A stretch of DNA of 64,000 nt from Escherichia phage AnYang. Position 1 is the first letter of the stretch. Every line of letters begins with the position of its first letter. Location: the sequence record MK234886; one strand, 5' to 3'. The notes beneath the pieces were generated by a model. That model was not told where the DNA came from. It did no database searches and saw only the letters and a program-made list of their open reading frames with translations. The position numbers were made by a program, and so were the translations under genes. This document shows, piece by piece, positions 150 to 56,158 of this stretch.

Positions 150-389
150 TTAAATTTCGGCAACATAAGTATTATGCAATTCCCACATATCATCGGAATT
201 ACTCTCAACGATAGGAATTATCTCATTAGAGATTTCTTCTGCATAAGGGTCATTGATACAATGGGCATCTTCAAAACGAACACCGTAATCAGACTTCTTA
301 TAAGCAAAGCCATAAATCTTTTTAAACTTGGCACGAGTAATGCGTACCGGTTCATTAGACTTATCGGACATCGGAGCGTAATACCACAT
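150..389 (-). CDS. hypothetical small protein (79 aa)
   Basis: ORF track; GAGGAG RBS 5 nt upstream of ATG; early promoter-like element immediately upstream. Confidence 0.55.
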   Translation of the reverse strand: MWYYAPMSDKSNEPVRITRAKFKKIYGFAYKKSDYGVRFEDAHCINDPYAEEISNEIIPIVESNSDDMWELHNTYVAEI

Positions 390-416
390 ATGTTCTCCTC
401 ATGTTTGTGTAGGGTA

Positions 417-445
417 ATAGTAACACGTATTTTTAGAGTTGTACA
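417..445 (-). promoter_or_regulatory. sigma70-type early promoter (TGTACA-N17-TACTAT, TG-extended) on minus strand
   Basis: hexamers read on minus strand; -10/leader/RBS module near-identical to the one at 56099-56158. Confidence 0.45.
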
Positions 446-762
446 TCACTTCTGCAATATTCTAAAAATAATTTATCGTTGTCTACCGTATCCCAACGAC
501 GCCAAGATGGATTCCAGACCAGAGCGTTGTCACCACAATCATTGAGCTTAAAATGGTCGTAGTACATAGCTATACGTTTAGTCTCGTCGCCAGAGAACCC
601 CAGTATAGGCTCACCGTGGGTATGATACATATGATGGTGCATTGAGAGGTCGCATTTGTAAAACATCTCACGTTTACCACGAACGAACAAGAAGGCTTGC
701 CCATTCATATAGAATTCTTTATCTGTTTTCAAAAGATATTTGAATACTGAATCTTTATGCAT
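433..762 (-). CDS. hypothetical His-rich protein (SMHHHMYHTHGEP); ORF track start 783, start 762 preferred
   Basis: internal ATG at 762 has AGGAGG RBS with 4-5 nt spacer; ATG at 783 has weaker signal. Confidence 0.5.
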   Translation of the reverse strand: MHKDSVFKYLLKTDKEFYMNGQAFLFVRGKREMFYKCDLSMHHHMYHTHGEPILGFSGDETKRIAMYYDHFKLNDCGDNALVWNPSWRRWDTVDNDKLFLEYCRSDVQL

Positions 763-792
763 AAGTCCTCCTATCACATCCATGTGGTTAAA

Positions 793-1020
793 TTATTTTC
801 CTAACGAAACACGAGTAGGTTTTTTACCAAAATAGTCCTCATAAGAACCATCTAAACGACCCGCTTTAGACCGACAATATGAATCGTACTTTTTGTAATA
901 AGTCATCTCAGTATTATAACGTGGGTGTCTATCAGCCATAATAATACTTAGTGGCCAACCTTTGGCATAATCGCGAAGACCATTTATTTTACGAATGTAT
1001 CGTTTTTTCAATTTTAGCAT
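793..1020 (-). CDS. hypothetical basic protein (75 aa)
   Basis: ORF track; start ATG overlaps last codon and stop of upstream paralog E (ATGCTAA), translational coupling. Confidence 0.5.
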   Translation of the reverse strand: MLKLKKRYIRKINGLRDYAKGWPLSIIMADRHPRYNTEMTYYKKYDSYCRSKAGRLDGSYEDYFGKKPTRVSLGK

Positions 1021-1238
1021 GAGCTTGGGTACCAGATTTTACCATCGGAACGAGCAACGAAGGTGCGACCAGCTTCTTCACCATAACAAGAGCTATTCAG
1101 CCAATCTTCGAGACGAACTTCACCGTCATAATCATCGAGCTCAACGCCAAAATCCTGAGCAGAAGCCATATCTTTTACTTTCTTATACAGTGCAGCCAGT
1201 TCAAGTGCAGCTTTTTCTAATTCATTAATATCAGTCAT
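1014..1238 (-). CDS. small acidic protein, paralog E of C-terminal W-x-S-S-Cys family (74 aa; also internal WLNSSC)
   Basis: internal ATG at 1238 with GGTGA RBS overlapping stop of paralog D; ends ...GKIWYPSSC. Confidence 0.6.
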   Translation of the reverse strand: MTDINELEKAALELAALYKKVKDMASAQDFGVELDDYDGEVRLEDWLNSSCYGEEAGRTFVARSDGKIWYPSSC

Positions 1239-1248
1239 TTTTATCACC

Positions 1249-1458
1249 TTAGCAAGACATAGAGGAGCTAAACCAGAAACCTTCACCTTCTGGAATACCG
1301 TAATCATCACGGGCCCATTCGTAATCATCATATTCCGGACTAGAAGCTGGAATATATTCTTCGCCACCAGCGTGGAAGTGTTGACCTGTTTCGTCAGCCA
1401 CGGACTGGCCTTTACGTACTAATTCACGGATTTGTTTTTCAATTTCATCAATAGTCAT
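1249..1458 (-). CDS. small acidic protein, paralog D (69 aa), ends GFWFSSSMSC
   Basis: ORF track; AAGGAAA RBS overlapping stop codon of paralog C. Confidence 0.6.
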   Translation of the reverse strand: MTIDEIEKQIRELVRKGQSVADETGQHFHAGGEEYIPASSPEYDDYEWARDDYGIPEGEGFWFSSSMSC

Positions 1459-1467
1459 TTTATTTCC

Positions 1468-1665
1468 TTAGCATTCGTAAGAGGAGGACACCCAAGAGGT
1501 ACCACTAATAGTAATACAACCGTTATAAAGCGTGATATGTCGTTCTAGGTCACGAACACCATCGATATAGATATCAGCTTCTTCGCGTTCTTCTTTACAA
1601 ATCTGGATAACGTTTTCAATAGCTGCGGCTGCAGTACGGATTGCACAATCTAGTTCACGAGACAT
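1468..1665 (-). CDS. small acidic protein, paralog C (65 aa), ends TSWVSSSYEC
   Basis: ORF track; AAGGAA RBS overlapping stop codon of paralog B. Confidence 0.6.
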   Translation of the reverse strand: MSRELDCAIRTAAAAIENVIQICKEEREEADIYIDGVRDLERHITLYNGCITISGTSWVSSSYEC

Positions 1666-1674
1666 AATAATTCC

Positions 1675-1956
1675 TTAACATTCAGAAGAAGAGGACACCC
1701 ATCCACCATTTTCTAGGCTGGTGGTGTAATCATGTTGGTTTACAATAGCGTACTGAGCTTCACCGTATTCTTCCCAGTGGGCAAGGTCGGCTTTCAGGGC
1801 GCCAGGAGAATAATAGTCACCGCCCATACCGCGAGCAGGGTATATATTAAAATGAGTCTCATATTTGTTAGCAATTTCCTCAGCACGACGAATAGCTTTA
1901 TGAATATCATTTACTGCTTCAGCCAGCTCTTTATTTTTACGGTAATCATTCATCAT
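1675..1956 (-). CDS. small acidic protein, paralog B (93 aa), ends GGWVSSSSEC
   Basis: ORF track; AAGGAAA RBS overlapping stop codon of paralog A; shares KYG/GDY core with paralog A. Confidence 0.6.
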   Translation of the reverse strand: MMNDYRKNKELAEAVNDIHKAIRRAEEIANKYETHFNIYPARGMGGDYYSPGALKADLAHWEEYGEAQYAIVNQHDYTTSLENGGWVSSSSEC

Positions 1957-1965
1957 AGCGTTTCC

Positions 1966-2256
1966 TTAGCACATTGCCGAAGAGGAGACCCAAGCACCGA
2001 CTGTAACGACACCGTTTTCAACTTCACCGCCATTGTTTTCAATTTCATCTTTAAACCACTGGGAGCATTCATAACCGACAGGATAATATGTACGGCCTGA
2101 ACCATAATCACCTGTACCGAATTGGATACCATACTTATCGGCAATAGCTTCACATTCATGTTCGATGGTATTCACTTTATTCAGAAGAGCATAGATAGCC
2201 TTTTCTGCAGATTTCTCATCATTGTGTTCTGGGATTTCAATTTCAATTTTATTCAT
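1966..2256 (-). CDS. small acidic protein, paralog A (96 aa), ends GAWVSSSAMC
   Basis: ORF track; ATGA start/stop overlap with upstream membrane protein gene. Confidence 0.6.
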   Translation of the reverse strand: MNKIEIEIPEHNDEKSAEKAIYALLNKVNTIEHECEAIADKYGIQFGTGDYGSGRTYYPVGYECSQWFKDEIENNGGEVENGVVTVGAWVSSSAMC

Positions 2257-2606
2257 GATTTACATTCCTTAATAAAGGTTTCAAGGTCATTACGATTGGT
2301 TTGTTTTACATACTCATTATAATTAGCCATCGATACAGCATATCTCTTACGGATGGGAGCATTCAAAGCATTTGTATGGCAAATATCATACACTACAGGG
2401 ATAAAATAAGCCACGACAGCCGGAGCGATTATCATATAGAAACCCATCTCAATAGGTGTGACTCCTTCGATTACAGCCATAACCACGGTCATTACCAGGC
2501 CAATTAGGCCGCCAAGCATGGCTGTAACAATCCCTAATAATAAATTGGCACCAATATCATATTCAGCCAATTGATAAACATGTGATGAAAGACTAGGCCG
2601 CTCCAT
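2253..2606 (-). CDS. small membrane protein, two predicted TM helices (117 aa; ORF track start 2780, internal ATG 2606 preferred)
   Basis: hydrophobic stretches GANLLLGIVTAMLGGLIGLVMTVVMAV and GFYMIIAPAVVAYFIPVV; AGAGG RBS before ATG 2606. Confidence 0.45.
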   Translation of the reverse strand: MERPSLSSHVYQLAEYDIGANLLLGIVTAMLGGLIGLVMTVVMAVIEGVTPIEMGFYMIIAPAVVAYFIPVVYDICHTNALNAPIRKRYAVSMANYNEYVKQTNRNDLETFIKECKS

Positions 2607-3135
2607 TTTGAACCTCTTTAGCGTATTCGCGACATTCAGCAATAAAACGATTAAGCTTCCGTTGTTGTTTTCGAATCTCTGATGTATACTCATTAGCCAA
2701 AATAATAAGCTCATCTTTATCGTAATTTTTAATATCCGAATAACTCGGGCGGCGGTCGACCATACCAAAGTGGTCACCATTTTCTAACATCAAATAGCAT
2801 ACTAAATGGTAATCATCGTCAGCATCAACAAGCTGTTTACAATCACTTGGTTCATTTAAAGCGTATACTGAATAGCATAATCCAGCGAATTCCACTCGTT
2901 GAATACCTAGATTTAAGTCAATAATTTCTAAAGCTTCTGCAAAAGAAAGGTCCTCAGCTAAAGCAAAGATAAAAGGTAATTTGCTAGTGTATCCACGGCT
3001 ATTTGTTCGACTTAAGAAATCATTGGAATAACCTAAGTCTTGGCGAATTCTATAAAGAACTGAATTAGTTTCATGGGAAAGACCACTATGCTTAAACCAG
3101 TCAATATTTGATATCAGGTCGTCATATAAACTCAT
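2593..3135 (-). CDS. hypothetical protein (180 aa)
   Basis: ORF track; GGAGAGGAG RBS upstream of ATG. Confidence 0.5.
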   Translation of the reverse strand: MSLYDDLISNIDWFKHSGLSHETNSVLYRIRQDLGYSNDFLSRTNSRGYTSKLPFIFALAEDLSFAEALEIIDLNLGIQRVEFAGLCYSVYALNEPSDCKQLVDADDDYHLVCYLMLENGDHFGMVDRRPSYSDIKNYDKDELIILANEYTSEIRKQQRKLNRFIAECREYAKEVQNGAA

Positions 3136-3158
3136 AATATTCTCCTCTCCTCCAAATA

Positions 3159-3176
3159 GGGAGACCGAAGTCTCCC
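3159..3176 (-). terminator. stem-loop GGGAGAC-UUCG-GUCUCCC (minus strand)
   Basis: perfect 7-bp inverted repeat with UUCG tetraloop directly downstream of 3184-3777 gene; same hairpin at 4674-4689 and 41242-41259. Confidence 0.5.
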
Positions 3177-3183
3177 AGTAACA

Positions 3184-3777
3184 TTACTTAAGTGAATTAA
3201 TGTAGTCGTCGATATCGGCAGAAGTCGTATCCATTCCAACTTGTGGGCCTTTAAACGTTTCTACACGCAGCAGGGTATCTTCAATATCAATCTTAGTCAG
3301 TGCAGCGATTTCAACAACATCATCGGCAGTAGCAATACCAAGGGCAGCCATATTGCGAGTTTCACGGATGTACTCGAGCTTAACGGCCAGTTCCTGACGA
3401 GAGTCATCAAGTTCCTTGACCTTCAGTTTAATTTCATTACGCATTTCGATATAATCATCGGCCTTCTTACGAAGCTGAGTAGCTGTACGACGATAAAGGA
3501 GGCCAAGTTTAGCATGTACCTGGACATCAGCACCTTCGGCAATCAGTTTACGAATTTCACGTTCTTTAGAAGCGGCAAGCTGGTCTTTTTCATTAGCCAA
3601 CGCACGAATACGTTTTTCTTCATTCACAGACTTAACATGAGCGGTCTGGAGTTCAGTAATTTTATCAATCAGGGTAGAAGCAGCTTTGGTGTATTGGTCT
3701 TCGATTGACAGGTTCTGAGCCATTGCAGTACCCAGTTTAGAACGGATGAATTCAACGATTTTCTTTAAAGTGTTCAT
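3184..3777 (-). CDS. hypothetical coiled-coil protein (197 aa)
   Basis: ORF track; AAGGAAA RBS; heptad-rich charged sequence. Confidence 0.55.
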
Positions 3778-3819
3778 AGTATTTCCTTCAGTTGATTAAG
3801 ATTTATAATCCATGAGGAC

Positions 3820-3848
3820 ATTATACCCTGTCCTCTGAGGTTTGTAAA
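3820..3848 (-). promoter_or_regulatory. sigma70-type early promoter TTTACA-N17-TATAAT with overlapping stem-loop GAGGACA...TGTCCTC
   Basis: hexamers and inverted repeat read on minus strand upstream of 3184-3777 gene. Confidence 0.5.
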
Positions 3849-3852
3849 TATT

Positions 3853-4251
3853 TTATTTCATTTTTGCGAGGCAAATTTCATTGGCTTCCCATTGAGCTTG
3901 CTTAATAATAGCTTTGGATACAGGAACCCTTTGGCCATAAGTTTTTGACGTTGAGAGAACAATATGTTTGTTTGCTTCATTATGCCAGCCCCATGATTTT
4001 TCGCCATGAGTACCTTTAACTACAGCTGACACCTCAACAGAGCAACCACCATCAGAAATCTTGGTTTCGACAATCCATTCATTTCTTTCGACGGCTTCAA
4101 GTTCTAATCTAGTTTTTTCTTCATACATAGCGGCCCAATCAGTTTTTGCCAAGTTGAAAGTAAGAGCTTTCTCCAATTCTTTGGCAGCTTTTTGTTGTTC
4201 AGGCGTTAATGAATTATACAACTCTTGCATTTCTTTATCTTCGATATTCAT
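3853..4251 (-). CDS. hypothetical protein (132 aa)
   Basis: ORF track; GAGGAG RBS. Confidence 0.5.
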   Translation of the reverse strand: MNIEDKEMQELYNSLTPEQQKAAKELEKALTFNLAKTDWAAMYEEKTRLELEAVERNEWIVETKISDGGCSVEVSAVVKGTHGEKSWGWHNEANKHIVLSTSKTYGQRVPVSKAIIKQAQWEANEICLAKMK

Positions 4252-4276
4252 TATGTTCTCCTCAAATTACGGGCTC

Positions 4277-4306
4277 ATAATATCTTAATCATGAGCCCGT
4301 GTAAAC
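4277..4306 (-). promoter_or_regulatory. early promoter GTTTACA-N17-TATTAT with stem-loop CGGGCTCAT...ATGAGCCCG
   Basis: read on minus strand upstream of 3853-4251 gene. Confidence 0.45.
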
Positions 4307-4308
4307 AA

Positions 4309-4572
4309 TTATTTCATATTATTGAAATAATCTTCCGCATCAAAATCGTTATCATGATAAACTTTGGTAGACAATTTAGCATAACCTTCAGCTGAGAACA
4401 TATTAATCACAACCTTAATTGTATACCATTGTCCATCATCATTACCCATTACTGCGTAAGTTTCAAATATAGGATGGTCATCACCTATAACCTTAATATC
4501 GTTAACAGTAGCACCAAATTCTTCAGGAACGCATTTCATAAAGAAATTAAACAATTCACCATAATTATCCAT
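4309..4572 (-). CDS. hypothetical protein (87 aa; ORF track start 4587 is GTG, ATG at 4572 preferred)
   Basis: AAGGAGAG RBS upstream of ATG 4572. Confidence 0.5.
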   Translation of the reverse strand: MDNYGELFNFFMKCVPEEFGATVNDIKVIGDDHPIFETYAVMGNDDGQWYTIKVVINMFSAEGYAKLSTKVYHDNDFDAEDYFNNMK

Positions 4573-4607
4573 TTTACTCTCCTTCACTCTGTTGTTTTGA
4601 TAGGTCT

Positions 4608-4636
4608 ATAGTATCATGTTTAAAGGAGGTGTAAAC
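4608..4636 (-). promoter_or_regulatory. early promoter GTTTAC-N17-TACTAT (TG-extended)
   Basis: read on minus strand; member of repeated TGATACTATAGRCCTATCAAAAC module. Confidence 0.5.
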
Positions 4637-4673
4637 AACTTTGTGAAATTATTTTTAGTCTAACCCCCAAAAA

Positions 4674-4689
4674 GGAGACCGAAGTCTCC
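4674..4689 (-). terminator. rho-independent terminator GGAGAC-UUCG-GUCUCC + U-run (minus strand)
   Basis: hairpin followed by TTTTTGGGGG on minus strand, downstream of 4695-5303 gene. Confidence 0.55.
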
Positions 4690-4694
4690 TTTCA

Positions 4695-5303
4695 TTATTT
4701 ACGAGTCTTTTCGAACTGGGCTGCGTCACCTGCAAGGCGGCCGGCTTGGCGAAGTTTGTTATTGATTTCTTCGCGCATAGGCTGGGTATACTTAAGGCCT
4801 TCAACCGTCAGATAGAGACGATACAGGTCTGGGGTATCCAGGTTGTTAATGTGTTGACCATTACGAAGAGCGTTGAATTCACGAACAAGGTGTTTAGTTT
4901 CAGATTCGATTTCAGAAACTAAAGAAGCCAGTTGGTTATATTTTTTAACTATAGTGCTGGTGTCAAACTTGATTTTAGGTTTAGGAGCTTCTTTTACAGG
5001 TTCTGGTTTAGGCGTCGGTTTCGGTGTTGCAACTTTGGGCTGAGCCGCAGGTTTAGCAACAGGAGCTTTAGTAGGTTTAGTAGCGCCACCAGCTACGATA
5101 TCTTTAAAAGCTTTGGAAGCTTTGTAATATTCTTTCTGGTTACTGGTGTCGAGCCCATACATATCATAGACGTTTTTAAAGAATTCGGTGGTGGTTTTAG
5201 TCCCAGAAATTTTATCATAAGCTGCTTGCCACATATCTTTAGTCATGCGAACGCCGGCTTCACTCAGAATGCTTTCGTTCAAAAATTCATTGTAAGTTTT
5301 CAT
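4695..5303 (-). CDS. internal-protein-like (IPIII-like) packaged protein with N-terminal capsid-targeting-type leader MKTYNEFLNES and Lys/Pro-rich centre
   Basis: leader resembles T4 IP CTS MKTYQEFIAE; late promoter TATAAATA upstream; 202 aa. Confidence 0.55.
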   Translation of the reverse strand: MKTYNEFLNESILSEAGVRMTKDMWQAAYDKISGTKTTTEFFKNVYDMYGLDTSNQKEYYKASKAFKDIVAGGATKPTKAPVAKPAAQPKVATPKPTPKPEPVKEAPKPKIKFDTSTIVKKYNQLASLVSEIESETKHLVREFNALRNGQHINNLDTPDLYRLYLTVEGLKYTQPMREEINNKLRQAGRLAGDAAQFEKTRK

Positions 5304-5331
5304 TGGTATTTCCTAAGTTAATTAACTTATC

Positions 5332-5339
5332 TATTTATA
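5332..5339 (-). promoter_or_regulatory. T4-type late promoter TATAAATA (minus strand)
   Basis: exact TATAAATA about 30 nt upstream of ATG 5303, leader AACTTAGGAAATA. Confidence 0.55.
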
Positions 5340-5345
5340 CAAAAA

Positions 5346-5365
5346 GCCCAACCTTTCGGAAGGGC
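5346..5365 (-). terminator. hairpin GCCCUUCCGAAAGGUUGGGC + U-run (minus strand)
   Basis: inverted repeat followed by TTTTTG on minus strand, downstream of 5372-5926 gene. Confidence 0.5.
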
Positions 5366-5371
5366 TGTAAA

Positions 5372-5926
5372 TCAGTTCTTATAGAATCGGAACGGGTTTA
5401 CGTGGAAGGCTAACATAGCCTTAGGGATTTTACGAGACAAAAGACTCTTAAGTTTCCAACCACAGTACACGCGAAGGTAAAAGGTAATACCTCCAACCTT
5501 AAGATAAGGAACCGAAGCAAAAACTCCCCATGCGTCATCATTCCACATCCATAGCCACCCGTGATGAGCTTTATCAGGGGAACCTGATTCCACATCAGGA
5601 TTACCGCGATAATGGAATTCTGAGCTACAATCACGTCCGAGTTTATGGTAAGCAAAGTTATAAGCTTTATTTCGCCATAGCCAAGCTACTCTCTGGAGAT
5701 AAACGCCAAAAGGTAGTTTTCTGATTTTAGCCCAACGTTTAATGTGACCTTTATCACCGTCAATTGGATTATCGTATGTCATCATCCAATCAAAGCCATA
5801 TGGTAATTTACCGGTCTTTTTATTGTGGAAAGGGACTACAAAAGGTGCAAGGATAACAGCCAGAACCATAGAGATAAAATCTAGAGGGACCAACAGAACC
5901 CAACTCAAATATTTTAAAAGTTTCAT
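5372..5926 (-). CDS. hypothetical membrane-anchored Trp-rich protein (184 aa), late-expressed
   Basis: N-terminal hydrophobic helix WVLLVPLDFISMVLAVILAPFVV; TATAAATA late promoter and AGGAAA RBS upstream. Confidence 0.55.
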   Translation of the reverse strand: MKLLKYLSWVLLVPLDFISMVLAVILAPFVVPFHNKKTGKLPYGFDWMMTYDNPIDGDKGHIKRWAKIRKLPFGVYLQRVAWLWRNKAYNFAYHKLGRDCSSEFHYRGNPDVESGSPDKAHHGWLWMWNDDAWGVFASVPYLKVGGITFYLRVYCGWKLKSLLSRKIPKAMLAFHVNPFRFYKN

Positions 5927-5952
5927 ATTATTTCCTAAGTTAGTTTACTACA

Positions 5953-5960
5953 TATTTATA
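5953..5960 (-). promoter_or_regulatory. T4-type late promoter TATAAATA (minus strand)
   Basis: exact TATAAATA about 27 nt upstream of ATG 5926. Confidence 0.55.
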
Positions 5961-5967
5961 CAAAAAA

Positions 5968-5989
5968 GGCCCGACCTTTCGGAAGGGCC
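5968..5989 (-). terminator. hairpin GGCCCUUCCGAAAGGUCGGGCC + U-run (minus strand)
   Basis: inverted repeat followed by TTTTTTG; third copy of same element at 47703-47725. Confidence 0.5.
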
Positions 5990-5995
5990 TTTAAC

Positions 5996-6225
5996 CTAGG
6001 GTAACCTTGTCGGGGTTCCACCTGCTAGGCAAGTGTTCGGTGCGCCGTTTCAGCTGTGATATAAGGGACTTTAAGAGGAACTCATGTACGCCTTAAAGTC
6101 GGGTCTTATTCAGGGAACTTCAGTCCGACGACTTACCGGTAGCGACCCGGTTTCTTGTTTGTTGCGCCGGTGAATGCTGGTAATCAGTCTTCATACGACG
6201 GCTTGACTATATAATAGTCTTCATT
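5996..6225 (-). ncRNA. candidate small stable RNA(s) adjacent to tRNA-Arg (positional analogue of T4 RNA C/D)
   Basis: 230 nt with no ORF over 25 codons and no RBS, between tRNA-Arg and a terminator; no canonical tRNA T-loop found. Confidence 0.25.
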
Positions 6226-6300
6226 TGGTATCCCGCCCTGGGATCGAACCAGGACCGCAAACTTAGAAGGATCGTATGCTATCCATTACACCAGCGGGAC
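6226..6300 (-). tRNA. tRNA-Arg (anticodon UCU), CCA encoded
   Basis: 75 nt cloverleaf read on minus strand: 7-bp acceptor stem, T-arm CCUGG-UUCGAUC-CCAGG, anticodon loop CUUCUAA. Confidence 0.85.
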
Positions 6301-6305
6301 GTAAT

Positions 6306-6971
6306 TCAAAATTTTATTTTACGGCCTTTATTCCAACCTTCAGGAATAATATCCGTTTTGTTAATACGTTTAGAAACTTTTTCTTCTAAAGAATGAATCC
6401 ACATTTTTCCATATCCGGAATTATTTTCACCTTGTTGGTGTTTATTTCTGGCGTGAGATTCTTTCATTTTATTTTTGGTTTCATCTGAATGGGTCTTACC
6501 CAAGAAAGATTTAGTATTTGAAAATTTCTCTCTATACTTAGGATTATCCCAAAGTTGTTTAAACCTTTCTGAACCCATTTTACGATATTTTTCTTTAAGG
6601 TCTGGGTCGTTCTCAAATCTGGTTTTAAAAGCGGCAACTCCTTTTAAGGAAGCTTCTTTCTTTTTATCTAAATATTCTTCAGTGTTTAAATGGTCCCAAC
6701 CACCTTCACCGCCTAATTTCAAATTATAAACATCGGGGCGCTTTAAAAACTCTTCAGTCACAATATTCTTTTCTGACTCAAACATAGAGATTTTATCGTC
6801 AAAGAACTCTAATATTTCTTTAGAGAAATTTTCTATACCGTATTTGGCCTGGGCCCTTTTCAAGAGTTTACCGGAACCAAAATATGCATCATTCAAATTT
6901 TCGGTTGAATGGGCTCCTATATAGATTTTATTATTAATTTTGTTTGTTATTTTATAAGTGTAATGGAACAT
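6306..6971 (-). CDS. segB: GIY-YIG homing endonuclease, SegB-like (221 aa)
   Basis: N-terminal YTYKITNKINNKIYIGA motif; sits between two tRNA genes as segB does in T4; AGGAGA RBS. Confidence 0.75.
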   Translation of the reverse strand: MFHYTYKITNKINNKIYIGAHSTENLNDAYFGSGKLLKRAQAKYGIENFSKEILEFFDDKISMFESEKNIVTEEFLKRPDVYNLKLGGEGGWDHLNTEEYLDKKKEASLKGVAAFKTRFENDPDLKEKYRKMGSERFKQLWDNPKYREKFSNTKSFLGKTHSDETKNKMKESHARNKHQQGENNSGYGKMWIHSLEEKVSKRINKTDIIPEGWNKGRKIKF

Positions 6972-7012
6972 AAATATCTCCTATTTCTAAGAGTATTTAT
7001 GTTCTCAAAATA

Positions 7013-7083
7013 TGGCCCTGGGTGGAATCGAACCACCATCCAGCGATTATGAGTCGCTCGCTTGACCGTCCAGCTACAGGGCC
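7013..7083 (-). tRNA. tRNA with CAU anticodon (Ile2/Met type), CCA not encoded
   Basis: cloverleaf on minus strand: acceptor GGCCCUG/CAGGGCC, anticodon stem-loop GCGA-CUCAUAA-UCGC, T-arm GGUGG-UUCGAUU-CCACC. Confidence 0.8.
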
Positions 7084-7088
7084 TTAAT

Positions 7089-7355
7089 TTAAATTACAAA
7101 TCCAGCAGGAGCATTATCATCTTTAGCCATGTGCTGAATTGTATGATAAGTCATTTCTTCAGGAGCAACCAGATAAGCCGCAGCGTTAACTAGTGGAATT
7201 ATTTTTGGTTTAGCGAATGTGCTATCGGCAATTGCCATAAAGGGCTCGCCGTCGGTCTCAACTTCACCAAATTGGCATTCATATGAAATAGAACAACGTT
7301 TGGTAGTTGTTGTCTTGGTTTCCGGGTCATAAAAAGCTAATTTTAATACTAACAT
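7089..7355 (-). CDS. hypothetical protein (88 aa; ORF track start 7361 is GTG)
   Basis: ATG 7355 preceded by GAGGTG RBS. Confidence 0.45.
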   Translation of the reverse strand: MLVLKLAFYDPETKTTTTKRCSISYECQFGEVETDGEPFMAIADSTFAKPKIIPLVNAAAYLVAPEEMTYHTIQHMAKDDNAPAGFVI

Positions 7356-7393
7356 AAACACCTCAAATAAAATTAAGTAAAGTAAGTTTGATT

Positions 7394-7439
7394 AATAGAC
7401 CTTGTCTATTATGAAAGGTTCTTTGAGGGAAGAACCTTT
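7394..7439. other. two adjacent hairpins (AATAGAC-ctt-GTCTATT and AAAGGTTC-N10-GAACCTTT)
   Basis: inverted repeats in the 130-nt spacer between two minus-strand genes. Confidence 0.35.
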
Positions 7440-7484
7440 GGTAATAGAGGGTATTAATGATAGAGTAATAATATCACATAATTC

Positions 7485-7769
7485 TTAAAGCATATTAATG
7501 TAATCAAGTTTAATAGAAGCAATCTTCAAAGGATTTTTAAAGATGTCATATTCGACCAATCCATTTTCAGTTGCGGTATAAAAAGTAAAGTTAACAGAAT
7601 TATAACGATGGCTGTTAACTTTGAGTTTAACATCGCTTGAACTACGGCCAATATTAACCTGTTGAACATCAAGCACAGCATCTTTGCCATAATTGCGAAT
7701 CAACAACTCAGCTGCAACCTGGTCTGAATTATAGCCATTCTCTGGATTAGTAACCTTAACGTATAGCAT
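7485..7769 (-). CDS. hypothetical protein (94 aa)
   Basis: ORF track; ATG immediately follows stop of upstream gene (TAAATG). Confidence 0.5.
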   Translation of the reverse strand: MLYVKVTNPENGYNSDQVAAELLIRNYGKDAVLDVQQVNIGRSSSDVKLKVNSHRYNSVNFTFYTATENGLVEYDIFKNPLKIASIKLDYINML

Positions 7770-8171
7770 TTAACCCTCGTCTACAATGGTGTGGGTGTTG
7801 GCATTAACAATTTGCCACCAGTCAAAACGATTAGACCCATAAAGAGGCTTATTCTCGTTTTCTTTAATAATATCACGCAGTTCATCTTCAGAGAATGCTT
7901 TAGCGATTAAATCAGTATATCCACCACGTGGATAATAGTTGTCACCCGCGAACAAAAGGAAATTTACCTTTCCAGAAGGAATATATGCTTCCTTAGGATA
8001 CTTGTTTCCTGCATGGTCTAACACTTCAATATAACGATAAGGGATATCAGTACTTTCAACCCATTGCCAAGCCGCAGCAGGAGAGTCAAAAGCATCTACA
8101 CCTAAACGGTTATCTTCATCTTTAGACGGATTATTTTCATAATCCGCATATACATAATATTCAACGTTCAT
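7770..8171 (-). CDS. hypothetical protein (133 aa)
   Basis: ORF track; AAAGGTGA RBS; TAATG overlap with upstream gene. Confidence 0.5.
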   Translation of the reverse strand: MNVEYYVYADYENNPSKDEDNRLGVDAFDSPAAAWQWVESTDIPYRYIEVLDHAGNKYPKEAYIPSGKVNFLLFAGDNYYPRGGYTDLIAKAFSEDELRDIIKENENKPLYGSNRFDWWQIVNANTHTIVDEG

Positions 8172-8356
8172 TATTCACCTTTAGAGATTTTATCCATAAC
8201 AAAAGAGATTGAACCAATTAAAAATGCCACTACTAAAGAGATTATATTCTCGGAAGTTGAAAGCATATCGAGCATGAATCCTGCAAACATACTAAAGCCA
8301 AAAGCAGTAACGGCGGCCAGTGCAGTAACATTTCTAATTAATTCGCAACGTTTCAT
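8171..8356 (-). CDS. small hydrophobic membrane protein (61 aa; ORF track start 8368 is TTG)
   Basis: ATG 8356 with GGAGA RBS; two hydrophobic segments. Confidence 0.45.
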   Translation of the reverse strand: MKRCELIRNVTALAAVTAFGFSMFAGFMLDMLSTSENIISLVVAFLIGSISFVMDKISKGE

Positions 8357-8392
8357 TTTATTCTCCAATCACTCATTTGTTTTGATAGGGCT

Positions 8393-8421
8393 ATAGTATC
8401 ACCACTAGAGCCCGTTGTAAA
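8393..8421 (-). promoter_or_regulatory. early promoter TTTACA-N17-TACTAT with stem-loop
   Basis: read on minus strand upstream of 8171-8356 gene. Confidence 0.5.
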
Positions 8422-8424
8422 CAA

Positions 8425-8697
8425 TTATTTTAGATAAATTGCATACTTTTTATAACCAGCCGTTTCGTGACGCAGTCCTTTTTCATTAGCAAAACGTTCA
8501 ATATTGTTAATTTGATTCTGGTCAAGTTCTGAAGTATCAAAAACAAAAAAGTTTCGCTTATTGCCTAAAGTTACATGATTAGTCAAATCAATGTTATAGA
8601 GATGATTTATATTATCAATCATGGTCTTAACAGATTTGTTAATTTTTACTTCTTCATTAAGAACAGATTCAGCGATAAATTCTTGATAAGTTTTCAT
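8425..8697 (-). CDS. internal-protein-like small protein with capsid-targeting leader MKTYQEFIAES (90 aa)
   Basis: N-terminus matches T4 IP capsid-targeting consensus MKTYQEFIAE; sits next to 57B as ipI does in T4. Confidence 0.55.
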   Translation of the reverse strand: MKTYQEFIAESVLNEEVKINKSVKTMIDNINHLYNIDLTNHVTLGNKRNFFVFDTSELDQNQINNIERFANEKGLRHETAGYKKYAIYLK

Positions 8698-8698
8698 T

Positions 8699-8920
8699 TT
8701 ATTCTACGCCAGCGGCTTTCAAAAGTTTTTTAAGATTGGCGGTGCCTTGAGCAGAAAATGTGACCTTGCCGCCTTTTTCGCTGATGCTCCCAGTCAATTT
8801 AGCAAGTTTATCACTAGAGACTTTTTTAAAATCAGCCAATGTACCGTCAAAGGTTTTTGTAACAACCGGCAGTTGGTCATGTTTTTTAGCTTCTGTAATA
8901 AATTCTTGATAAGCTTTCAT
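8699..8920 (-). CDS. internal-protein-like small protein with leader MKAYQEFITEA (73 aa)
   Basis: CTS-like N-terminus; GGAAA RBS; tightly coupled to downstream IP-like ORF. Confidence 0.55.
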   Translation of the reverse strand: MKAYQEFITEAKKHDQLPVVTKTFDGTLADFKKVSSDKLAKLTGSISEKGGKVTFSAQGTANLKKLLKAAGVE

Positions 8921-8957
8921 TTTGATTTCCGTTTGGTTAGTTTGTTTTGATAGGTCT

Positions 8958-8986
8958 ATAGTATCACGCCTATAGACCTTGTAAAC
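8958..8986 (-). promoter_or_regulatory. early promoter GTTTAC-N17-TACTAT with perfect 10-bp stem-loop AGGTCTATAG...CTATAGACCT
   Basis: read on minus strand upstream of IP-like genes. Confidence 0.55.
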
Positions 8987-8998
8987 ACCTTTTTTAAA

Positions 8999-9676
<678 letters not shown>

Positions 9677-9684
<8 letters not shown>

Positions 9685-41274: not shown

Positions 41275-41541
41275 CTATGCAATCTTAACTCGTCGATTGA
41301 TGATATCACGGAAGTCAATACGATTTTCTTGGATTTTCAGCCAGTTACCAGATTTGTCTTTGGTATGGGTAGAGTATTCACCGTTCCACCAGAAGTCAGT
41401 TTCATAAGCTAGGGCTTCGTATTTCTTAACCAATGCATTAACTGCATTACCGTTAGGATTGGTACCAAATTTTTCTACCAGAGCTTTGATGTCTTTGTCA
41501 AGGTTAGAAAGCGTGGTACGGATAAAGTTTAATTTGTTCAT
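41275..41541 (-). CDS. hypothetical protein (88 aa) in the position occupied by segD in T4
   Basis: ATG 41541 with GAGGAG RBS; early promoter upstream; no GIY-YIG motif. Confidence 0.5.
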   Translation of the reverse strand: MNKLNFIRTTLSNLDKDIKALVEKFGTNPNGNAVNALVKKYEALAYETDFWWNGEYSTHTKDKSGNWLKIQENRIDFRDIINRRVKIA

Positions 41542-41570: not shown

Positions 41571-41599
41571 ATAGTAACACGACGCTTTTTGTGTGTAAA
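41571..41599 (-). promoter_or_regulatory. early promoter GTTTACA-N17-TACTAT (minus strand)
   Basis: same repeated module as 4608-4636 and 8958-8986. Confidence 0.45.
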
Positions 41600-41606
41600 C
41601 CACTTT

Positions 41607-41614
41607 TATAAATA
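41607..41614 (+). promoter_or_regulatory. late promoter TATAAATA for gene 24
   Basis: exact consensus about 30 nt upstream of ATG 41644. Confidence 0.55.
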
Positions 41615-41643: not shown

Positions 41644-42924
41644 ATGGCTAAAATTAACGACCTTTTAAAAGAGTCGACCACTACTTCGAGTTCTTCGATT
41701 GGTCGTCCAAATTTAGTAGCTTTAACCAGAGCTACGACCAAACTGATTTATACCGACCTTGTAGCTCAGCAGCGTACTAACCAACCTTTGGCTGCTCTAT
41801 ATGGTATCAAATATCTTACAGAAAAAAACGAATTATCTTTCCAGACAGGTGCTACTTATTCTGGTGCAGTATCCGCTAAAGACCGTGCCTCTATCCCAGT
41901 TTTCACTGCAGGTGCTGTTTACGCTAAAGATGATTTGTTCCAATTTGAAAACGTAGTTTATAAAGCTTTGGTAGCAACACCATTTGCAGGTGCTACTGGC
42001 GATGAATACGAACAACTTCAAGAAGCTATTGTTAAGTTGACTATTCGTATTATGTCCGAAGCCGCACTGACTGAGCGTTTTGAAGGCCTCCAGGATGTAG
42101 ATGTTTCTGAAGCCAAATTCGTCGTTAATAAATGGAACGCTCCAGTTAAATCCCGTAAGTTGAAGAGTACTGTTACTGTAGAACTGGCTCAAGACCTCGA
42201 AGCAAATGGTTTCGATGCCCCTAATTTCTTGGAAGACCTCCTGGCTACTGAAATGGCTGATGAAATCAACAAAGATATTCTTCAGTCCCTGGTTACGGTT
42301 TCCAAGCGTTATAAAGTTGAAGGTTTGTGTGATGACGGCTTAATTGACCTGAGTTATGCTAACTCACCGGAAGCTTCTCGCAAGCTTTATGAAATAGTTT
42401 GTGAAATGGTTTCTCATATCCAGCGCGCAACCTCTTATACAGCAACTTATGTAGTAGCGAGTACTCGCGTAGCCGCTGTTCTGGCTGGTTCTGGCTGGTT
42501 AAGACATACCCCACAGAACGATAAATATCTTTCTGCAAATGCATACGGATTCCTGGAAAATGGTTTGCCAGTGTATTGTGATACCAACACGCCAATTGAT
42601 TATGTTACTGTAGGTGTTAAAGAGGAATTTGGTGGGAAAGAAGCGGTAGGTTCTTTGTTCTATGCGCCGTATACAGAAGGCCTTGATTTGGCTGACCCTG
42701 AACATGTGGGTACATTTAAAGTGGTCGTTGACCCTGAAAGCCTGCAACCATCTATTGCATTAATGGTTCGTTATGCACTGGCTGCTAACCCTTATACGGT
42801 TACTTCTGATGATAAACAAGCCCGTATTATTGATGCGACTAATATGGATTTGATGGCGGGACGTTCTGATATGTCCGTATTGCTTGGTGTGAAACTTCCT
42901 AAAGTTTTGACTGAATTAAACTAA
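41644..42924 (+). CDS. 24: gp24 capsid vertex protein
   Basis: 426 aa, synteny after gene 23. Confidence 0.9.
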   Translation: MAKINDLLKESTTTSSSSIGRPNLVALTRATTKLIYTDLVAQQRTNQPLAALYGIKYLTEKNELSFQTGATYSGAVSAKDRASIPVFTAGAVYAKDDLFQFENVVYKALVATPFAGATGDEYEQLQEAIVKLTIRIMSEAALTERFEGLQDVDVSEAKFVVNKWNAPVKSRKLKSTVTVELAQDLEANGFDAPNFLEDLLATEMADEINKDILQSLVTVSKRYKVEGLCDDGLIDLSYANSPEASRKLYEIVCEMVSHIQRATSYTATYVVASTRVAAVLAGSGWLRHTPQNDKYLSANAYGFLENGLPVYCDTNTPIDYVTVGVKEEFGGKEAVGSLFYAPYTEGLDLADPEHVGTFKVVVDPESLQPSIALMVRYALAANPYTVTSDDKQARIIDATNMDLMAGRSDMSVLLGVKLPKVLTELN

Positions 42925-56129: not shown

Positions 56130-56158
56130 ATAGTACCACATCCTTGTGGTGTTGTAAA
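56130..56158 (-). promoter_or_regulatory. early promoter TTTACA-N17-TACTAT; -10/leader/RBS near-identical to 387-422
   Basis: plus-strand text ATGTTCTCCTCATGTTTGTGTARGGTAATAGTA shared with the 390-422 region. Confidence 0.5.

Follow-up and report, generated by a model that had tools for sequence, protein, structure and literature searches.

Background

Promoter-early-stem-loop (PeSL) elements of T4-type phages consist of a sigma70-type early promoter, an AT-rich upstream region and a variably placed stem-loop, and they lie between genes, in hyperplastic regions and beside indels (PMC2839356, PMC4122927). PeSLs have been described in RB49/phi1 (Arbiol et al. 2010, PMC2839356) as well as in T4/PST and KVP40/nt-1 (PMC4122927). 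The consensus in T4/PST reads TTTACW-N17-TAYWAT (Comeau et al. 2014, PMC4122927). For the genus Dhakavirus, the literature found holds solely a mention of 'PeSL-like sequences' in JS98 near gene 43 (PMC2839356). Repeated early-promoter elements have also been reported at the internal-protein (IP) loci of T-even phages (Repoila et al. 1994, as summarised in PMC2839356). T4 early promoters follow the layout UP, -35, TGn and -10 (PMC2988021). Here, we compare these systems with a family of repeated minus-strand sites in Escherichia phage AnYang (MK234886). The window is the whole stretch of 64,000 nucleotides (nt) that was analysed, and most of the sites fall within positions 3811-8990. We consider it likely that the sites are early promoters of a JS98-like T4-type phage, some of them with a selected hairpin, and that they are PeSLs acting as passive recombination substrates.

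The interval 3700-9100 matched 715 phage records in a sequence search of a phage collection. The top matches were JS98-like T4-type coliphages of the genus Dhakavirus (e.g., LQ5, IME540 and KIT01) with 87% coverage and 94% identity, and the phage of the window can be assigned to the JS98-like Dhakavirus by sequence. LQ5 was the closest complete relative, and its complete genome was scanned for the promoter motif and for hairpins.

Predicted early promoters in the accessory region

The motif TTTACA-N16-18-TAYWAT has seven exact matches in the window. All of them are on the minus strand, which is the gene-sense strand. Dinucleotide shuffles of the window gave an expectation of 0.41 and never reached seven. 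The exact sites are at 3820-3848, 4277-4305, 4608-4635, 8393-8421 and 8958-8985, i.e., five within 3811-8990, and at 41571-41599 and 56130-56158. A copy with one mismatch at 417-445 brings the number of sites in the window to eight. A sequence-only reading of this DNA had proposed sigma70-like promoters at six minus-strand locations, and our motif search over both strands recovered all six as exact matches; 56130-56158 and the one-mismatch copy had been missed. The same reading described the sites as often TG-extended, in agreement with TGn preceding the -10 hexamer at six of the eight. In the LQ5 genome, where 2.3 sites would be expected, there are 32 exact ones, and one strand holds 31. A chance origin of the motif is ruled out by the shuffles, both for the window and for the LQ5 genome. 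A generic sigma70 scan of the window was uninformative (42 sites against 40 expected), and only the T4-type consensus carried information.

The predicted promoters and their hairpins are listed below, with z scores from a comparison of the RNA fold energy with 200 shuffles per site.

3805-3875, minus strand: early promoter P3848 upstream of e.6, with the -35 at 3843-3848 and the -10 TATAAT at 3820-3825
3810-3838, minus strand: P3848 hairpin with the -10 in its loop; -12.6 kcal/mol, z -2.3
4262-4332, minus strand: early promoter P4305 upstream of the open reading frame (ORF) 3853-4251, with the -35 at 4300-4305 and the -10 TATTAT at 4277-4282
4269-4300, minus strand: P4305 hairpin of 13 bp, ACGGGCTCAT...ATGAGCCCGT, with a GGGC...GCCC motif; -21.5 kcal/mol, z -7.05
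4592-4661, minus strand: early promoter P4635 upstream of e.8, a member of repeat family D1, with the -35 at 4630-4635, TGn, and the -10 TACTAT at 4608-4613
4670-4693, minus strand: separate terminator-type hairpin AAAGGAGACTTCGGTCTCCTTT(TT), listed by the terminator scan; -14.5 kcal/mol, z -2.65
8377-8446, minus strand: early promoter P8421 upstream of trna.4, with the -35 at 8416-8421, TGn, and the -10 TACTAT at 8393-8398
8388-8413, minus strand: P8421 hairpin GGGCTCTAG...CTATAGCCC, overlapping the -10; -14.6 kcal/mol, z -3.0
8942-9011, minus strand: early promoter P8985 upstream of the first IP gene, with the -35 at 8980-8985, TGn, and the -10 TACTAT at 8958-8963
8952-8979, minus strand: P8985 hairpin of 10 bp, AGGTCTATAG...CTATAGACCT; -17.2 kcal/mol, z -6.35
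41571-41599, minus strand: early promoter between genes 23 and 24, of the same sequence subfamily; hairpin not significant, z -1.0
56130-56158, minus strand: early promoter directly after a 707-amino-acid (aa) ORF and preceding a 96-aa ORF; weak 6-bp spacer hairpin, z -0.6
417-445, minus strand: one-mismatch copy TGTACA-N17-TACTAT upstream of ORF 150-389; no hairpin, z 0.0

The promoter sites share their context as well as their core. The 25 nt 5' of the -35 are 72-88% AT, compared with a window average of 60%. A stop codon lies 3-17 nt before the -35 at all five focal sites, and the stop codon of ORF 3853-4251 is contained in the AT-rich upstream part of P3848. A Shine-Dalgarno sequence (GAGGAG, AGGAG, GGAGA or GGAAA) is found 5-9 nt before the ATG at all sites. 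The promoters are thus placed between an upstream stop codon and a downstream Shine-Dalgarno sequence with its ATG, and orthologous sites are kept in 22 related loci. We infer promoter use from the sequence class, the strand and the position of the sites.

Two stretches of text are shared between sites. The first, GATACTATAGNCCTATCAAAAC, stands as a repeat with three exact occurrences and one with a single mismatch, against none expected. A repeat search places it in the 70-nt family D1 with members at 4592-4661, 8377-8446 and 8942-9011, which are 60-81% identical. The second, TACTATAGACCTATCAA, is carried by about half of the 32 early promoters of LQ5. This text is the genome-wide early-promoter consensus of the phage group and no signature of a special cassette.

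The genes directly behind the focal sites are e.6, the orf133 homologue, e.8, trna.4 and one IP gene, i.e., five of about 13 protein genes of the interval. The 3.7 kb at 4700-8390 hold seven protein genes and two tRNAs without a site of this kind, and the 12 small ORFs at 150-3135 have a single site among them. The suggestion that the elements flank most of the unassigned small ORFs was therefore overstated.

The promoters outside the focal interval also stand at gene boundaries. The promoter at 41571-41599 precedes a small minus-strand ORF at about 41275-41541. A plus-strand late-promoter box TATAAATA at 41607-41614 is arranged back to back with it, ahead of the start of gene 24 at 41644, and the two promoters occupy the short gap between the major capsid genes. 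The 707-aa ORF before 56130-56158 is presumably Alt, as we read it from gene order and size. The copy at 417-445 has the same leader as 56130-56158.

Relation to described promoter elements

The motif of the window equals the published T4/PST consensus of PeSLs. Further shared features are an early promoter, an AT-rich upstream region and the location, in a probably hyperplastic region, with a stop codon on one side and the next Shine-Dalgarno sequence and ATG on the other. A subset of the sites also has a stem-loop between or over the -35 and -10 boxes. The case of RB49 ORF192 is reproduced as well, with a gene between two elements being replaced in relatives by one chimeric element. The stems differ from those described before. 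They are AT-rich or of the GGGC type here, whereas RB49/phi1 stems are of the form G(n)...C(n), and they overlap the -10, whereas PST stems are drawn upstream of the promoter. A further difference from PeSLs is that a stem is found on about one third of the early promoters in this phage group. The sequences support the classification of the elements as PeSLs, with the stem-loop present in a subset.

Elements at the IP loci of T-even phages are close counterparts. The 82-nt P8985 module matches 664 phage records and stands beside IP genes in Tequatrovirus, and matching sites in fPS-65 are annotated as 'predicted early promoter'. Over about 70 nt, P8985 is 76-81% identical to Tequatrovirus IP intergenic elements, T4_ev240 and fPS-65 share the upstream text AAAATAATTTCACAAAGTTGTTTACA of P4635 letter for letter, and the layout with a hairpin over the -10 is the same. 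The T-even elements precede IP genes, and the leader MKTYQEFI adds homology (families D4 and D7). In contrast, elements of the present phage occur genome-wide and also before non-IP genes, such as e.8, trna.4 and the ORF between genes 23 and 24. By these similarities, the elements of the window are homologous to the T-even IP-locus early-promoter repeats of Repoila et al. (1994), as far as these are covered by the summary in PMC2839356.

All four recognition elements of the T4 early promoter class are present, together with a strong strand bias and a position before early-region genes. Unlike in T4, an extended consensus follows the -10 (AGACCTATCAA) and is specific to this phage group; activity of the promoters is predicted from sequence.

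Hairpins at the promoters

Four of the eight window promoters (3848, 4305, 8421 and 8985) carry a hairpin beyond what shuffles produce, with z from -2.3 to -7.05. The sequence-only reading had each of six promoters overlapping an inverted repeat, which holds for these four; the promoter at 4635 has a separate upstream hairpin and the one at 41599 has none. In LQ5, ten of 32 promoters have z <= -2, and four of the ten are orthologues of the focal sites, which indicates that hairpin promoters are a minority class concentrated in this region.

P4635 itself has no hairpin above shuffles (fold z -0.7). The separate hairpin at 4670-4693 lies between the 202-aa IP-like ORF and P4635, about 35 nt from the latter, and provides a stem-loop component for this promoter. 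Its core GGAGACTTCGGTCTCC is present twice (family D14), at 3152-3175 after orf131 and at 4666-4689 after the 202-aa ORF, and is a further reused intergenic element.

Covariation was assessed on orthologues from 12 loci of the phage collection and 10 IMG/VR loci, the latter found by a search with the e.8 protein. Several of the 10 IMG/VR loci may duplicate isolates already compared, which makes the covariation sample small. The 4305 stem has two pairs with double changes (CG/UA/UG and GC/AU), and 97.8% of cells are paired. The 3848 stem GAGGACA/TGTCCTC becomes GAGAGCA/TGCTCTC in L021, i.e., two double changes with 100% pairing. Slid controls are paired in 29-57% of cells. Paralogous elements in relatives and other T4-type phages have unrelated stems (GATAGGGTA/TACCCTATC and GATGAGGTA/TACCTCATC) in the same layout over the -10, with z from -3.2 to -5.1. 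The register of the stem against the -10 differs between paralogous promoters. The compensatory changes argue for selection on the hairpin structure.

An alternative is that the inverted repeats are signals at the DNA level. The repeats might be palindromic operators for a phage or host regulator, or cruciforms or GGGC...GCCC motifs at which cleavage or binding, e.g., by endonuclease VII or an unknown site-specific protein, initiates targeted recombination. We judge this very unlikely. The repeats do overlap the -10, where initiation would come under the control of a protein bound there or of an extruded cruciform, and two stems contain GGGC...GCCC, a motif linked to T4 deletion endpoints (Mosig 1998, as reported in PMC2839356). 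The authors of the PeSL concept have also raised a possible stem-loop-binding recombination protein (PMC2839356). However, the stems are wholly different between sites (AGGTCTATAG, ACGGGCTCAT, GAGGACA and GATAGGGTA), and several variants stay paired by sense-strand G-U wobble alone, which corresponds to an A-C mismatch on the other strand. The mapped crossovers fall in the AT-rich upstream and -35 part or in the leader, and not in the stems. Differing stems with compensatory substitution point to a structure rather than to a shared recognition sequence. A common palindromic operator is ruled out, as the stems differ between sites and covary.

A bolder variant starts from the stem enclosing the -10, which persists from JS98-like to T4-type phages while its sequence changes. 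Such a stem could extrude in DNA, or form on intermediates of replication or recombination that are single-stranded. It might then be acted on by a structure-specific activity, such as endonuclease VII, or by a pathway linked to GGGC/GCCC, and the promoters would be active, targeted hotspots for gene-cassette exchange. We hold this to be improbable.

An RNA-level function is favored by the position of the stems. They lie upstream of the expected transcription start and could therefore fold only in read-through RNA from the upstream gene. Canonical Rho-independent termination of the upstream transcription units is one such function, and a PeSL stem-loop of RB49/phi1 placed before lacZ cut expression about as much as rrnB T1 (PMC2839356). 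The hairpins share with intrinsic terminators a stable GC-containing stem right after a stop codon. They differ in having no U tract and in being embedded in the next promoter. The stems are followed by ATCAAAAC, AATTTGAG and ATGGATTA with no T run, and a terminator scan that finds the T-tailed hairpin at 5970-5983 lists none of the four. Canonical terminators are thus an extremely unlikely explanation, and an attenuator or 3'-protective role is suggested instead. The hairpins most likely attenuate read-through or protect the 3' end of the upstream message. Among Rfam covariance models, only the two tRNAs match within 3700-9100 even at E <= 1, and no known RNA family was found for the hairpins.

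The nuclease RegB targets GGAG specifically, and GGAG is part of the Shine-Dalgarno sequence in three of five leaders. In some T4 early mRNAs, RegB cleaves inside the Shine-Dalgarno sequence (PMC2988021). As a speculation, RegB cleavage at the GGAG of the leader would leave the hairpin near the new 3' end.

Recombination at the promoters

Comparison with relatives indicates that genes were lost, gained and swapped by crossover within the elements. The clearest case is the 132-aa ORF at 3853-4251, a homologue of JS98 orf133, which is missing in UP19 and ABTNLsp5. Both phages keep a single promoter there, in which the upstream region and -35 of P4305 are joined to the spacer and -10 of P3848. 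The junction reads ...AATAATATGAAATAATTGTTTACA|ACCCTCAGAGGACAGGGTATAATGTCCTC, and the crossover point differs between the two phages. The deletion breakpoint at 4300 falls in the -35 hexamer of P4305, with P3848 being the right-hand partner, and L014 has the same single chimeric promoter.

Hybrid sequences are also found at the other elements. Relatives lacking the 202-aa ORF have variants of the P4635 region in which another upstream region, or another -35 and spacer, is joined at ACATGATACTAT, and an indel boundary at 4648-4654 lies inside the P4635 upstream region. A breakpoint cluster at 8405-8431 coincides with P8421, where WG01 and MX01 have an additional Ip7 gene inserted with its own promoter. 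In MX01, the P8421 promoter is fused to an IP leader, KIT01 has a mosaic leader, and the trna.4 promoter of LQ5 carries a P8985-type stem.

In the IP genes, the breakpoints 8666-8703 and 8887-8891 coincide with the end of a shared leader, in our reading the one that targets T4-type internal proteins to the capsid. The same leader is found at the 5' ends of three ORFs (8665-8700, 8888-8923 and 5258-5304) as MKTYQEFIAE, MKAYQEFITE and MKTYNEFLNE. This coding leader appears to extend the homology of the upstream promoter and to mark swap boundaries in the IP locus.

Breakpoints were called from blastn chains against 12 relatives and form 24 clusters below position 9500. All five focal footprints hold an indel breakpoint, which is more than expected under a uniform null (P = 0.002). 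A 200-bp indel at 9001-9007 lies beside P8985; it was joined at a microhomology of 7 nt (CTAAAAT) that is not part of the promoter core. This indel thus provides no evidence for promoter-to-promoter recombination.

We propose the following sequence of events. Right after infection, the host sigma70 polymerase would recognize the AT-rich UP-like region, the T4-type -35 (G)TTTACA, usually TGn, and the -10 TAYWAT, and the small downstream genes would be transcribed via a short leader with its Shine-Dalgarno sequence. In about one third of sites genome-wide, and four of the five here, the spacer and -10 region would encode a hairpin that forms in read-through RNA. The elements share 20-70 nt, are co-oriented and stand at gene boundaries, and phage homologous recombination could cross over within them. 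Such a crossover would delete, insert or swap the gene between two sites and leave one chimeric promoter, with every gene keeping a working promoter. Recombination at the elements is probably passive rather than an autonomous mobility.

Alternative interpretations of the promoter repeats

Several observations weigh against this interpretation. Both the use and the timing of the promoters are predictions from sequence. Half of the window promoters (4635, 41599, 56158 and 445) have fold energies no different from shuffles (z -1.0 to 0), and 22 of the 32 LQ5 promoters lack a hairpin, which shows that the stem-loop is not obligatory. None of the four hairpins present is followed by a U tract, as described above. 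The covariation comes from 5-7 distinct sequences, and joint exchange of both arms by recombination could mimic it. Five of the 24 breakpoint clusters fall in the promoter footprints, which is no enrichment against a non-coding null (P = 0.11). We do not claim that the elements attract breakpoints more strongly than other intergenic DNA, as the enrichment is gone under this null. The nearest relative also switches from gene to gene equally often at 150-3135, which is nearly free of such promoters.

Repeats without a promoter recombine too. A 47-nt repeat at 1448-1494, 1655-1701 and 1946-1992 spans a gene end (..WVSSS.EC stop) and the next Shine-Dalgarno sequence and start. This family, D2, has neither promoter nor hairpin. 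ORF 1468-1665 is missing from KIT01, IME540, WG01 and MX01, which have a hybrid of two D2 copies at the junction. This one-gene deletion is of the same kind as that between promoters, a further point against a special role of the promoters. Further indel ends coincide with a terminator and late-promoter repeat, with the block of the homing endonuclease and tRNAs, and with a hairpin-bearing site that resembles a middle promoter. Indels from promoter-less repeats and from microhomology suggest that short homology of any kind suffices and that promoters are one convenient class.

The lost enrichment, the mosaicism where such promoters are absent and the deletion between D2 repeats would also suit plain early promoters, as would the presence of TACTATAGACCTATCAA in about half of the LQ5 promoters. 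Under such an explanation, the sites resemble each other by convergence on the promoter consensus of the phage, each hairpin is a separate 3' element of the gene before it that has been fitted into a narrow intergenic space, and the link with indels arises because gene-sized indels end between genes. We regard this as unlikely. In the chimeric P4305/P3848 promoter, the crossover falls within the element itself, and its position is not the same in the two phages. Spacers and leaders of hybrid make-up are found at P4635, P8421 and P8985, and the 70-nt similarity runs past the consensus hexamers into the upstream region. The plain-promoter explanation differs in emphasis, not in kind, from our preferred reading of the sites as PeSLs that are passive recombination substrates. 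In the sequence-only reading, the sites were PeSLs in the sense of mobile regulatory cassettes. The PeSL definition and the chimeric junction support this, with qualifications; the stem-loop is confined to a subset, and 'mobile' is best read as passive homologous recombination.

Neighboring genes and other modules

Genes of the region are on the minus strand, and their order was taken from annotated relatives. The order begins with 57B, two IP genes, trna.4, trna.3, trna.2 and orf137. A tRNA-Met, a homing-endonuclease ORF, a tRNA-Arg, a structured non-coding stretch and orf136 follow. The 202-aa IP-like ORF, e.8, orf133 and e.6 are at the end.

Between the tRNA-Met and the tRNA-Arg, a 221-aa ORF at 6306-6971 (minus strand) shows 98.8% identity to an IME540 gene annotated as 'homing endonuclease'. 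Most relatives carry a tRNA-Asn or a short spacer in its place, with breakpoints at 6161/6306 and 7013/7072. Downstream of the tRNA-Arg, about 250 nt at 5968-6225 (minus strand) are non-coding and relatively GC-rich, with a fold of -76.9 kcal/mol (z -2.56) and no Rfam match. Several relatives have a 144-nt insertion at 6036 inside this stretch. It possibly corresponds to the small stable RNAs that T4 encodes next to its tRNA genes.

The minus strand carries a second repeated regulatory module, at 5307-5365 and at 5929-5988. In it, a T-tailed hairpin (GCCCTTCCGAAAGG..GGGC TTTTT) is followed by the T4 late-promoter box TATAAATA and a shared leader ending TTAGGAAATA, then ATG. The module (families D8 and D16) precedes orf136 and the 202-aa IP-like ORF, and the indel boundaries 5341 and 5905-5942 lie inside it. 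The 129-nt gap before orf137 holds a MotA-box-like middle-promoter match, TGCTTTAA-N12-TATTAT, at 7468-7492 (minus strand), followed by a strong hairpin at 7405-7448 (z -4.2), with breakpoints at its ends (7405 and 7491-7498). This combination at 7405-7492 resembles the 'PmSL' variant described for phage nt-1.

Gene 57A (9455-9684) is about 74% identical to 11 of 12 relatives and 94% identical to IME08. Its neighbors 57B and 1 reach 95-99% identity with all 12. The pattern looks like allelic replacement of one conserved gene.

Implications for T4-type phages

The promoter repeats of the window illustrate at the sequence level how small accessory genes can be exchanged in T4-type phages while their expression is kept. 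New in this analysis are a Dhakavirus chimeric junction resolved to the base and evidence for an optional hairpin and a probably passive recombination. These findings set limits on the PeSL idea, since the stem-loop is on a minority of early promoters, the conserved text is a consensus, and promoter-less repeats are equivalent. The elements appear to serve as convenient patches of homology, not as dedicated mobile elements. Early transcription units and probable borders of gene cassettes are marked by the sites, which is relevant for the annotation and engineering of therapeutic JS98-like phages.

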